A stretch of 64,000 nt of DNA, taken from positions 34,100,001 through 34,164,000 of the forward strand of contig OX597818.1 in assembly GCA_951406725.2 (NCBI GenBank). The letters are read 5' to 3'. Positions within the stretch are counted from its first letter, which is position 1; each line of letters begins with the position of its first letter. A model generated the notes under the pieces. The model was not told where the DNA came from. It saw only the letters and a list, made by a program, of their open reading frames with translations, and searched no databases. Position numbers and translations under genes: made by a program. Source of the DNA: Octopus vulgaris (taxonomy: Eukaryota). Shown one piece after another: positions 13,552 to 48,505 of the stretch.

Positions 13552-13604
<53 letters not shown>

Positions 13605-13830
13605 GAAATATTAAAATTACTAAGTCTCTCTAAAAGAGAACAACGGCAGCGTTCTCGGAAAATAATAGTTATCGCCATACTAATATGGCATTCTTATAAA
13701 AATAAGAATAAAGCTGTCCGCTTATTAGCTCCATGAGGCCATCGCCTTAAGTTAGCTATTTGATACACAAACTGTATCCATATAACCTTCGAACAAGGGA
13801 GGTCAGTCGCTCCACACTACTTGACCGGCA

Positions 13831-13872
13831 GCTGCAGACGCGTTTCGGGGTATTGCCCCTTTTCAATGCAGC
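13831..13872 (-). ncRNA. Minimal type I hammerhead ribozyme, U3:A8 core variant (copy 1)
   Basis: Minus strand reads GCTGCA-TTGAAAA-GGGG-CAATA-CCCC-GAAA-CGCG-TC/TGCAGC: 6-bp stem I, 4-bp stem II, palindromic ACGCGT stem III, GUC cleavage triplet. Confidence 0.88.
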
Positions 13873-14192
13873 GTAGCCAGACAGTAGGTGTCGCTTCTGA
13901 CAATCTCTGTTCGAAGGTTTTATTTACCTAGCTTCGGTGGAATACATCCACTTGTTTTCAATAATAGAAATATTAAAATTACTAAGTCTCTCTAAAAGAG
14001 AATAACGGCAGCGTTCTCGGAAAATAATAGTTATCGCCATACTAATATGGCATTCTTATAAAAATAAGAATAAAGCTGTCCGCTTATCAGCTCCATGAGG
14101 CCATCGCCTTAAGTTAGCTATTTGATACACAAACTGTATCCATATAACCTTCGAACAAGGGAGGTCAGTCGCTCCACACTACTTGACCGGCA

Positions 14193-14234
14193 GCTGCAGA
14201 CGCGTTTCGGGGTATTGCCCCTTTTCAATGCAGC
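14193..14234 (-). ncRNA. Minimal type I hammerhead ribozyme, U3:A8 core variant (copy 2)
   Basis: Identical to copy 1 and exactly 362 bp away. Confidence 0.88.
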
Positions 14235-14669
14235 GTAGCCAGACAGTAGGTGTCGCTTCTGACAATCTCTGTTCGAAGGTTTTATTTACCTAGCTTCGGT
14301 GGAATACATCCACTTGTTTTCAATAATAGAAATATTAAAATTACTAAGTCTCTCTAAAAGAGAATAACGGCAGCGTTCTCGGAAAATAATAGTTATCGCC
14401 ATACTAATATGGCATTCTTATAAAAATAAGAATAAAGCTGTCCGCTTATTAGCTCCATGAGGCCATCGCCTTAAGTTAGCTATTTGATACACAAACTGTA
14501 TCCATATAACCTTCGAACAATGGCGATAACTTGCCGTTGTTCTCTTTTAGAGAGACTTAGTAATTTTAATATTTCTATTATTGAAAACAAGTGGATGTAT
14601 TCCACCGAAGCTAGGTAAATAAAACCTTCGAACAGAGATTGTCAGAAGCGACACCTACTGTCTGGCTAC

Positions 14670-14711
14670 GCTGCATTGAAAAGGGGCAATACCCCGAAAC
14701 GCGTCTGCAGC
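14670..14711 (+). ncRNA. Minimal type I hammerhead ribozyme, U3:A8 core variant (inverted copy)
   Basis: Plus strand GCTGCA TTGAAAA GGGG CAATA CCCC GAAA CGCG TC TGCAGC; predicted cleavage after C14705. Confidence 0.88.
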
Positions 14712-14873
14712 TGCCGGTCAAGTAGTGTGGAGCGACTGACCTCCTTGTTCGAAGGTTATATGGATACAGTTTGTGTATCAAATAGCTAACTTAAGGCGAT
14801 GGCCTCATGGAGCTAATAAGCGGACAGCTTTATTCTTATTTTTATAAGAATGCCATATTAGTATGGCGATAAC

Positions 14874-14910
<37 letters not shown>

Positions 14911-14914
<4 letters not shown>

Positions 14915-31550: not shown

Positions 31551-32700
31551 TAATACCCAGGCTTACTCCCCATTTTAGTAGGAGTGCGTAGCCACAAGAC
31601 ACAAACTAGGCATTCCATTCATTTCTCAGCTCAAAGAGGCGAACCCCGTTCTATGCTCGGGTCAAGGTTAGAACGCAACCCCCAATGTTAGCAGCAGGGC
31701 CCGGCAGCATATGCTGGTTTACACCCGCCGCATCATGCTGGTTCCGTACCCTTTGGAGCAACATCAACTTCACTCATCCGTCCACAAACACTCTCCAAGC
31801 TTCCCTATCATTTATAAACTTTCTTGCCTCTAACCACCAAAGCTTTCCTCACTCCATCCATCCACACAAACCGAGATCTGTCTCTAGTTCTGTTGCCTAC
31901 CACTTCTGCCTTCATCACTCCTCTTACCATCCGCTCCTCATCCATCTTCTCCATGTAGCCAAACCACCTCAACATTCGTCTATCCATTTTGGTTGTTAGT
32001 TTTTCTCTCATTCCTGCTCGCCTTCGCACCTCCTCATTCCTCATCCTGTCCATCCGTGTCACACAAACCATAGCCCTCAAACATCTCATCTCAAACACAT
32101 CTAGTCGCCTCCTTTCCGCCTCTCTCAGCACCCACATCTCTGCACCATATAACATTGTTGGCACAATCACGCCCTCATATACACCTCTTTTAACTTTAAT
32201 ACTCAACCTTTTATCTCTTAGCATACCTTTCACAACTCCAAGTATCTTACTCTCCTCCCTCACTCTGTATCCCACTTCCTCAGTCAACACCCCTCCGCCG
32301 TCACATGTGATCCCAGATACTTGAAAACACTCACCTCCTCTAACATCTCACCATTTATACTCACATCCATCCTACCAGCCATTCCATCTCTCGAACATCT
32401 CATCACCTTACTCTTAGTTACATTCACTTTCAGTTTCCTCCTCTCACACCCTCTTCCAAACTCTACCACCAGTCTCCTCAGTTGCCCTTCCGAATGCGCC
32501 ACCGGTGCTACATCATCAGCAAGCAACAAATGACTCACCTGCCATTTCACTCCATTTTGTCCCACCATTTGGGCTCCCCTACCAAGAGTTCTAGCATTTA
32601 CCTTACTCACCACACCATCCATATATACATTAAACAGCCACGAAAACATCACGCAACCCTGTCTTAACCCCACCTTCACATCAAACGCACGCCCTACTTT
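31551..32700 (-). mobile_element. 5'-truncated RTE-clade LINE (reverse transcriptase C-half, frameshifted)
   Basis: ORF 32284-32679 has GLRQGCV...LFNVYMD, LLLADD and FKYLGS; ORF 31808-32290 has YGAEMW, FEMRCLR, RNEEVR and LRWFGY. Left boundary approximate. Confidence 0.9.
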
Positions 32701-32740
32701 CTCTATAAATACGTTTAAATTTTCTTAAAACTTATTACTC

Positions 32741-37670: not shown

Positions 37671-38270
37671 ATTCTCTCTAGTTTCAGCTCACAGCTGCGG
37701 CCATGCTGATGCACCACCGTTTTGCTACACTGTTATTACTAAGAGCCTCCGCTAATATGTGGCACTTAGTGAAGAATGGAGTTTGATAAAGCTACCCTCA
37801 TTTGCACCTCTTGCCGTGGAGTAGGTTCATCTGGGACTCTCAACAGGAAGAGGTCCAGCTTTGATTTAAAAACCCCCACATCTACTTTGTGCAGGTTCCT
37901 CAAACTCTTTGAGAGAATATTAAAAAGCTGTGGGCCCCTGAAAACCAGGCTTTTGCAGTAACTGGTCCTGAAGCACGATGACGTTGCTGGGATCTTTGGT
38001 ACTATGCAGTGTCGTCCCGTTCTGGCATTAGTGTAGCTTTCAATGCCAAACTTTGTCACAATTCCTTTCAGGATCTTCCAGATATATATTATTGCATACC
38101 TCTCCCGTCTTCTCTCCAGGGAGTAGAGTCTTAACTGTTTCAACCTTTCCCAGTAGCTGAGCTATTGCAAAGAGACGGTCTTCTTTGTGAATCTTCTCTG
38201 GATTGCTTCAAGATCCGCTGTTAATTTCACACTGGTGGGTGACCATATCTATGAGCGTAATCCAGGCATA
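37671..38270 (-). mobile_element. 3' fragment of a CR1/L2-group LINE with 3' tail
   Basis: IQRRFTK...SYWERLKQLRLYSLERRRERY...FKSKLDLFL...PDEP (includes ORF 37766-38143), followed by a structured tail at 37671-37720. Confidence 0.8.
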
Positions 38271-38448: not shown

Positions 38449-38648
38449 GTATGGAAAACAATTTAATTTTAGAAAAATTAAAAGAAAAGTGCTTTAAAAA
38501 AAAATTGCATACAAAAAGAAAGGGGAGGAGGGGGAGAAGAAGAAGAATGCGGGAGTGCCATGATAGTAGTAGGATGTTAAATGGTCAAGTGCCCTGGAAG
38601 TGATTTGTTGTGGATGGTAGTAGTGACTGAATTCTTGAGATATCTCTT

Positions 38649-39233
38649 GAATGTGCCCTTCAACTCAACAACCAGGAACTCAGACATCCCAAATTAAGGA
38701 AGGATTTACAACCAAAAACCCTACCATACAAATCCATATACAACCCTCTTAACAATGAAGCCTTCGACACCATTCTTCAAAACATTCCCCTGCTAAAAAA
38801 GGACCACAGAATGAACTTAATCCTCCAAACACACACCATCATAAAAAGCAAGAGACCACCTAAATCTATGAAAAGTCTCCTAACACAAACCCGAATACAC
38901 TCAACAACAACACAGAAGCCTTCAGTATAAAAGCGCCGAAAGCTCAACTGTGGAATATGCGTCAATTTAATTGAGAGATCAGAGTTCTCCTTCAAACAGG
39001 CACAACGTATCACAGTGAAAAGCAGTTTCACATGTTCTTCGGAGAACCTGATATACGCACTAACCTGCTCTGCGTGTCAAGAGCAATACATAGGCCAAAC
39101 AAAGAAACAGTCTACGTAAAAGGATGGCTCTGCACAGATCCCAGATCAAAATTCCCCAAATTAGAAAAATAGCATTCAGCCAACACATTGGCATTTGCGC
39201 CAATAACAAAAACCCGAGCTTCAAAATTTTTAA
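38649..39233 (+). pseudogene. Penelope-like (Neptune-type) linker plus GIY-YIG endonuclease fragment
   Basis: Translation includes KSKRPPKSMKSLLT, NCGIC, FTCSSENLIYALTCSACQEQYIGQT and, after a frameshift, LRKRMALHRSQI...SQHI. One internal stop. Confidence 0.85.
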
Positions 39234-39467
39234 GTTAGCATTGATTTAATATATGATACAACACGCGTATGGAGAGGAATATTTATTTAAAAAATCTAAT
39301 ATAAATACGCAGATATATAAAACTATGGTTTCGACACCTGGGCAGTACCATTCAATCTGGCGGTGCCAACAGCACTAAGTGTTGTTTGGGAACAAACATA
39401 CTTTAGATATCACTACATTCATTCAATCTTAATTCTAGGAATATAAAAGAATATATATATATATATA

Positions 39468-47882: not shown

Positions 47883-48505
47883 TTAAGGCAGCTGGCAGAA
47901 TCGTTAGCACGCCGGGCGAAAAGCTTAGCGGTATTTCGTCTGCCGCTACGTTCTGAGTTCAAATTCCGCCGAGGTCGACTTTGCCTTTCATCCTTTCGGA
48001 GTCGATTAAATAAGTACCAGTTATGCACTGGGGGTCGATATAATCGACTTAGCCCGTTTGTCTGTCCTTGTTTGTCCTCTCTGTGTTTAGCCCCTTGTGG
48101 GTAGTAAAGAAATAGGTATTTCGTCTGCCGTTACATTCTGAGTTCAAATTCTGCCGAGGTCGACTTTGCCTTTCATCTCTTCGGGGTCGATAAATTAAGT
48201 AGCAGTTGCGCACTGGGGTCGATGTAATCGACTTAATCCCTTTGTCTGTACTTGTTTGTCCCCTCTATGTTTAGCCCCTTGTGGGCAATAAAGAAATAAG
48301 AATCGTTAGCACGCTGGGCGAAATGCTTATTGGCATTTCGTCTGCCGCTACGTTCTGGGTTCAAATCCCACCGAGGTCGAATTTGCCTTTCCTTTCATCC
48401 TTTCAGTGTCGATAAATTAAATACCAGTGAAACACTGGGGTCGATGTAATCGATTAGTCCCCTCCTTCTAAATTTCAGGCCTTGTGCCTTTAGTAGGAAA
48501 TATTA
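47883..48505 (+). mobile_element. Three nested or tandem SINE family A copies
   Basis: Repeated B box and Nin-like bodies; tails AAAGAAATA are followed directly by internal SINE sequence. Confidence 0.88.

Follow-up and report, generated by a model that had tools for sequence, protein, structure and literature searches.

A two-armed insertion in a TA microsatellite

The window (the whole 64-kb stretch of Octopus vulgaris DNA analyzed here) carries at positions 13599-14879 a noncoding element that is bounded by (TA)24 and (TA)18 and represents a single insertion in a TA repeat (Table 1). The element has a minus-strand arm of 2.5 tandem 362-nt units and, head-to-head with it, a plus-strand arm of about one unit. 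TRF reported for the tandem portion (13599-14520) a period of 362 with 2.5 copies and 99% matches, and the inverted arm (14532-14879) is 98-99% identical to the unit. We numbered unit positions along a reference unit from 14322 (position 1) to 13961 (position 362). On this scale the 3' terminus is position 362 for the minus arm and position 299 for the plus arm, and both 5' ends meet at 14520. The original prediction had described the region 13601..14878 as a tandem array, a description that holds for 13599-14520; the portion at 14532-14879 is an inverted copy, and the true bounds are 13599 and 14879. The left (TA)24 overlaps the unit end by a few bases, making any TSD unreadable.

Table 1. 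Parts of the insertion and its flanks (window coordinates; unit positions as numbered in the text)
Feature	Position	Strand	Basis
(TA)24 target microsatellite, left flank	13554-13601		sequence and TRF
Full unit, positions 1-362; 3' end is the long (L) end, position 362	13599-13960	-	99.4% identical to reference unit
Type I hammerhead, U3-A8 core, palindromic stem III; predicted cut 13837/13836	13831-13872	-	fold scan
Full unit, serves as reference numbering	13961-14322	-	TRF and comparison
Type I hammerhead; predicted cut 14199/14198	14193-14234	-	fold scan
5'-truncated unit, about positions 165-362, begins the minus arm	14323-14520	-	TRF and comparison
Inversion junction: 12 nt equal to unit 283-294, then unit 295-312 skipped	14520-14531	+	sequence versus unit
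Inverted arm, passing from unit 313-362 into 1-299 and finishing at the short (S) 3' end, position 299	14532-14879	+	comparison
Type I hammerhead in inverted arm	14670-14711	+	fold scan
(TA)18 target microsatellite, right flank	14877-14912		sequence and TRF

As originally predicted, the insert has no long ORF (its longest stop-to-stop frame is 59 aa). The unit is AT-rich, and a short ATG frame present in the family of the window copy (family A) is closed in a sister family (family B) described below. Two positions differ among the units of the window copy. A transcript reading through the locus would form a double-stranded RNA of ~350 bp covering one hammerhead. The antisense arm would thereby pair with one unit, so that the window copy may be a dead end and need not be the source of other copies.

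The window contains other repeats. The nearest Penelope fragment lies 24 kb from the insertion; a frameshifted Penelope fragment at 38631-39294 is 45-56% identical to the 781-aa protein described below. We also recognized by eye broken LINE-like reverse transcriptase frames at 31808-32724 and 37766-38161 (minus). A 185-nt repeat in two tandem copies (47930-48298) is presumably SINE-like.

Predicted hammerhead and RNA fold

A script scan found exactly three type I hammerhead folds in the 64-kb window, all at the places proposed in the original prediction (minus 13831-13872, minus 14193-14234 and plus 14670-14711), and none in 50 shuffled windows. The GUC cut sites that it had proposed (14199/14198 and 13837/13836) also agree with ours and predict a monomer of exactly 362 nt. 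By contrast, the detection by Rfam models that it had suggested as a check failed: the search returned no match at the gathering score and no hammerhead family among the 16 matches at E≤10, and we rejected the weak matches as TA-rich chance matches.

In the hammerhead core, U3 and A8 replace C3 and G8. The fold predicts a 6-bp stem I that is prolonged into a long rod and a 4-bp stem II, whereas stem III is a 6-nt palindrome that alone is unable to form a stable hairpin. Penelope elements of Schistosoma provide a precedent for the U3-A8 pair, and motifs of this kind generally depend on dimers (Cervera and de la Pena, 2014; PMC4209133). In the octopus unit, the minimum of a two-copy co-fold is a dimeric hammerhead (-140.5 versus 2 x -67.2 kcal/mol), and the palindromic stem III likely needs a dimer. 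Self-cutting of the motif is predicted from its fold and conservation. The linear monomer folds at -127 kcal/mol (z -7.4), with none of 100 shuffles equally good, and the circular monomer, with 63% of its positions paired, has a z of -8.0.

Within family A, one stem I pair occurs as G-U, G-C or A-U, the window having the rarer G-C form (17 exact matches). Across 8 family A and 10 family B units, all hand-picked, 97.7% of the cells pair, and six pairs are altered on both sides between the families, including pairs in stem II and in the palindromic stem III. This covariation points to a conserved fold rather than to activity, because it reflects a single split between lineages, not a series of independent events, and the same sequences served to derive the structure.

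A young dispersed family with paired fixed ends

A 32-nt core pattern of the unit had 890 exact matches in the genome (0 for the control), and the best matches are spread over many different chromosome-scale contigs. The first 100 listed core matches comprised 63 loci, of which 60 make up a position-ordered set and three were already among the retrieved loci. The 60 loci are sorted by position rather than structure, and each contains the exact core. Copies diverge on average by 1.5% from the family majority (87 loci), which upholds the recent activity proposed originally. Units of one arm differ by 0.7%, those of the two arms of a locus by 0.8% and those of different loci by 2.1%.

Copies have two fixed 3' ends, at unit positions 299 (S) and 362 (L), which are 63 nt apart and run into (TA)n. 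Indeed, (TA)4 lies within 30 nt of 87 of the 96 S or L ends, against a background of 6.5%. The original prediction had spoken of circularly permuted copies; with their 3' ends fixed, the copies are not permuted freely. The genome search that it called for did recover the copies and four Penelope fusions.

Two-armed, head-to-head loci account for 41 of the 60 in the position-ordered set. Among these 41, 37 combine an S with an L end, none has two S or two L ends, and four are irregular. When all four sets of loci were pooled, adding best-hit A loci and B loci, the 95 junctions comprised 75 S+L, 1 L+L, 0 S+S and 19 irregular cases, that is, one end of each type in 75 of the 76 classifiable two-armed insertions. 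Family B is less regular (11 of its 29 junctions are irregular). The arms overlap at their junction by at least 2 nt in 77% of 78 junctions versus 25% of 344 simulated ones (p 4e-16), a statistic restricted to overlaps of -3 to 12 nt, which excluded 17 observed junctions and 56 simulated ones. Furthermore, sublineage markers agree between the arms in 35 of the 36 loci where the markers split about evenly, an agreement that could also be explained by sublineages active at different times.

Tandem junctions are common across loci. More than half of the arms (59/102) are longer than one unit, 14/102 are longer than two, and 30/103 cross the predicted cut site twice or more. The 5' ends coincide with the cut site in 9 of 169 cases versus 3.7 expected, a weak excess (p 0.014, uncorrected), and their main peak sits at a palindrome.

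The longest arrays among the examined loci have ~7.5 units (L096:2445-5001 with L192:1-914) and 5.5 units (L072:1253-3252), the latter adjoining an unrelated tandem repeat of ~200 nt. Private variants are common to nearly all units in both arrays. Variants present in only some units (L124, L015, L110 and, at positions 235 and 320, the window copy) suggest that local duplication operates too. In L015 and L110 every other unit carries the variants, as might result from a template of dimer length or from a dimer that was duplicated. At another locus (L021:1410-1500), a different hammerhead-like motif directly adjoins the 3' end of the unit.

Sister family B also has a 362-nt unit, about 82% identical to that of family A and with the same two ends (L149:809-1170, L131-L160 and L211-L230). 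One variant of its core has 184 exact matches, and one of its insertions is long-long (L216). The unit's words occur in sequencing runs labelled as six organisms, suggesting that the family is probably shared among related species. Contigs of four runs that we guess to be RNA cover the unit, a type of evidence that is silent on strand, ends and circles versus tandems. The search for splice-like sites in the unit yielded no spliced junction in the examined loci, and the sole motif match was a flank coincidence.

Assignment to the non-LTR retrozymes

By sequence criteria, the element is a non-LTR retrozyme, which is a known class. Metazoan non-LTR retrozymes are tandem noncoding repeats of 150-450 bp (350-390 bp in mussels) with GC below 50%, one type I hammerhead per unit, strong self-pairing and co-existing Penelope-like elements, which were proposed only as candidates for their mobilization (Cervera and de la Pena, 2020; PMC7229834). 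The octopus repeats are likewise dispersed, noncoding, low in GC and highly self-paired, have a unit length within this range, and carry a type I hammerhead in each full unit, with at least two units consecutive. Like axolotl retrozymes, they have a weak stem III that is likely to need dimers (PMC7229834). We rejected a plant LTR retrozyme, which would have a type III hammerhead in its LTRs, in view of the type I fold and tandem units. Differences from the metazoan retrozymes include the U3-A8 core, and the available portion of that paper describes no counterpart of the inverted second arm, the paired fixed ends or the TA targeting. In addition, the metazoan circles were shown by Northern blot (PMC7229834), whereas those of the octopus family are hypothetical.

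Vertebrate non-LTR retrozymes were recently described as non-autonomous Penelope derivatives (Li, Clavereau and Pollet, bioRxiv 10.64898/2026.07.22.740005). The octopus element fits their definition, which asks for two or more consecutive units and a type I hammerhead in every one of them, and the origin and carrier that we propose are those proposed in the preprint. The preprint's evidence is co-occurrence and a phylogeny of Penelope terminal repeats (pLTRs), mostly from vertebrates, whereas ours is insertion anatomy; the invertebrate groups in the available portion of the preprint include no mollusc. Unlike the cases it reports, the octopus searches found no homologous pLTR. Cercyon elements of Schistosoma share with the octopus unit the covariation of the core and the Penelope context (Cervera and de la Pena, 2014; PMC4209133). 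However, Cercyon hammerheads are minimal and mostly single, whereas the octopus motif has a 6-bp stem I in a long rod and its 6-nt palindromic stem III lies inside a tandem unit.

Earlier publications already cover the retrozyme class, the U3-A8 pair and the Penelope link separately. The original prediction lacked this published status of the class and of its Penelope link, as well as the two-armed inversion, the paired fixed ends and the TA target. Within the main texts of the accessible literature, searches on cephalopod retrozymes, Penelope hammerheads, twin priming, head-to-head insertions and the U3-A8 pair returned no description of this family.

Penelope-like elements in the octopus genome

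We also identified in the genome a young, intact two-ORF element encoding a reverse transcriptase (RT) and GIY-YIG endonuclease (L055:768-4471, G000 C6), with similar elements in L052-L067. This Neptune-like element has two overlapping ORFs: an upstream 479-residue stop-to-stop frame without a clear Pfam match and a 781-residue RT and GIY-YIG frame that is open in 16 copies. Its CX4CX2C linker suggests a Neptune or Nematis type by the criterion of PMC8557442. Canonical EN+ elements are described as having a single ORF, with a frameshifted ORF1 allowed in the legend of figure 1 of that paper (PMC8557442).

The Neptune-like element has its own U3-A8 core, with the same stem III palindrome as family B. 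It also has two fixed ends, 40 nt apart, that run into (TA)n and are paired as S+L in both of the two-armed copies examined (2/2), the same scar as that of the retrozyme copies. Outside the hammerhead core, it shares no sequence with the unit. The hammerhead of its commonest subfamily (L055:636-670) looks eroded, with a shortened stem II; the L041 and L053 subfamilies keep the full U3-A8 fold.

In 3 of the 60 A loci (L077, L126 and L117) and 1 of 20 B loci (L214), Penelope coding pieces are fused to the unit without intervening DNA. These fusions involve pieces of three families other than the 781-aa element and may have arisen by co-insertion or by separate insertions into one TA repeat. All of these Penelope families favor the same TA repeats, and some of the fusions may therefore be independent neighbors. 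We rejected L051, L006, L081 and L092 as fusions because TA or other DNA lies between the unit and the nearby Penelope pieces. Similarly, in L211 two family B core matches 3.9 kb apart were considered as the flanking repeats of an element and rejected, as no Penelope ORF lies between them.

One of the Penelope families, family C, is C-rich and Neptune-like, with 3' ends that are 99% identical and run into (TA)n (L126:1040-2286, L077:920-2105 and L161-L190). It has a hammerhead-like motif whose core is off consensus at A6. None of the 29 other family C loci has the unit within 1.5 kb. The unit and family C share a 13-nt match in antisense orientation, which we dismissed as near chance by a rough estimate.

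Proposed insertion mechanism and RNA template

Copies of the family are dispersed and young, lie in TA targets with paired fixed ends, have arms of shared sublineage that meet at microhomology, and carry compensatory changes in structure. We conclude that the region very probably represents one insertion of a dispersed, noncoding 362-nt hammerhead family, likely pasted into a TA microsatellite by a Neptune-type Penelope-like RT-endonuclease. Indeed, partial tandems, an inverted 5'-truncated copy, a tail at one end and (TA)n targets are known features of EN+ Penelope insertions of the Neptune and Nematis types (PMC8557442, PMC3846280), as are a hammerhead upstream of the tail and two RT start sites (PMC8557442, PMC3846280, PMC11167929). 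For example, the anole Penelope protein, a predicted dimer, cuts and extends both strands in vitro from two internal starts that define the tail (Frangieh, 2024; PMC11167929). By analogy, the enzyme, likely a dimer, would cut both strands of (TA)n. Priming on a single RNA would start at unit position 299 from one DNA end and at position 362 from the other. Both cDNAs would be copied upstream for variable lengths, often past one unit, before 2-6 nt of homology unites their ends head-to-head. The octopus copies differ from EN+ Penelope elements in having no ORF, a tail of 63 nt rather than 30-40 nt, and either arm as the long one. Moreover, the available portion of PMC11167929 reports no strand difference in the start site, whereas here there is almost always one of each. 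This near-obligate pairing goes further than the published account, which notes in qualitative terms that often just one end carries the tail. For head-to-head junctions, a published alternative that may also apply is self-priming with an antisense template (PMC3846280), yet it does not by itself predict one-of-each pairing.

Two further explanations were considered. The units could be solo pLTRs shed by an overlooked autonomous Penelope family, whose standard features include the inversion, the tail and the hammerhead (PMC8557442, PMC3846280), and each of our genome searches scored the best candidates only. However, position 362 directly joins position 1 in the tandem copies, and no coding flank is shared among 27 best-hit, 60 A and 49 B loci. 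The original prediction had set a test beforehand, namely whether the unit is always the terminal repeat of an autonomous Penelope family; it was the regular terminal repeat of a shared ORF in none of the 60 position-ordered A loci. Nor did the 40 GIY-YIG loci or 30 family C loci include an autonomous element homologous to the unit beyond the hammerhead core. The sole same-strand ORF fusion (L117) breaks the ORF inside GIY-YIG, and the 3' end of that Penelope family itself differs. We thus regard shed pLTRs as improbable. More improbable still is a satellite or minisatellite grown by DNA-level recombination, or an assembly artefact. Local duplication of units is visible at a few loci, yet recombination is at odds with short dispersed insertions that number in the hundreds, lie between TA flanks and vary at their 5' ends while their 3' ends are fixed. 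Both a satellite and an artefact are also disfavored by the two differences among the window units and by the occurrence of the unit in runs labelled as six organisms.

The original view of a retrozyme mobilized by Penelope-like elements is retained for a noncoding, mobile unit with a likely Penelope carrier; its tandem arms fit a circular template and also an uncut multimer. A cut linear monomer is excluded as the template by those arms that pass the cut site at least twice. We lean toward a circle, which dimer-dependent hammerhead cleavage and host ligation would produce and from which multimers would be regenerated from monomers. This reading is favored by the private variants shared across the units of L096 and L072, as truncation alone would erode arrays. 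Counting against it are the partial sharing of variants in L124, L015, L110 and the window, the merely slight enrichment of 5' ends where the motif would cut, the finding that cleavage was not needed in the anole assay, where hammerhead mutants left insertion in vitro unaffected (PMC11167929), and the cleavage in vitro of only 1 of 9 Xenopus retrozyme dimers (bioRxiv 10.64898/2026.07.22.740005). The same carrier could instead have copied uncut tandem RNA transcribed from a small number of multi-unit source arrays, perhaps only one, with circles minor or absent and the hammerhead dispensable for insertion or acting only with protein help. Uncut RNA was the dominant substrate for the anole Penelope protein, the sole such system assayed in vitro (PMC11167929), arrays of 5.5 and ~7.5 units exist, and some variants are confined to part of an array. 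We nonetheless consider an uncut template somewhat less likely. Random 5' truncation would shorten arrays each round, yet 14/102 arms exceed two units; the long arrays carry private variants in nearly all units; and the core and dimer palindrome have been kept across an 18% split. The match density on the first contigs closely predicts the genome total, which leaves little room for a very large hidden array. Combining the circular template with the Neptune-type carrier, we tentatively propose that a dimeric enzyme primes both cut TA ends on a single 362-nt RNA circle, one per start site, and rolls round it.

Implications

The route by which retrozymes enter genomes is so far mostly a matter of proposals, and there is no settled account of the way in which tandem and inverted Penelope insertions arise. 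The octopus family ties both questions together by countable scars: paired fixed ends, a shared template, microhomology joins and Penelope fusions. It also supplies a small RNA and intact candidate proteins suited to in vitro study. If the circle reading is true, each two-armed insertion would be the record of one double-priming event. The hundreds of near-identical copies would then allow Penelope integration, and the use of circular RNA as a template for retrotransposition, to be assayed directly in the genome.
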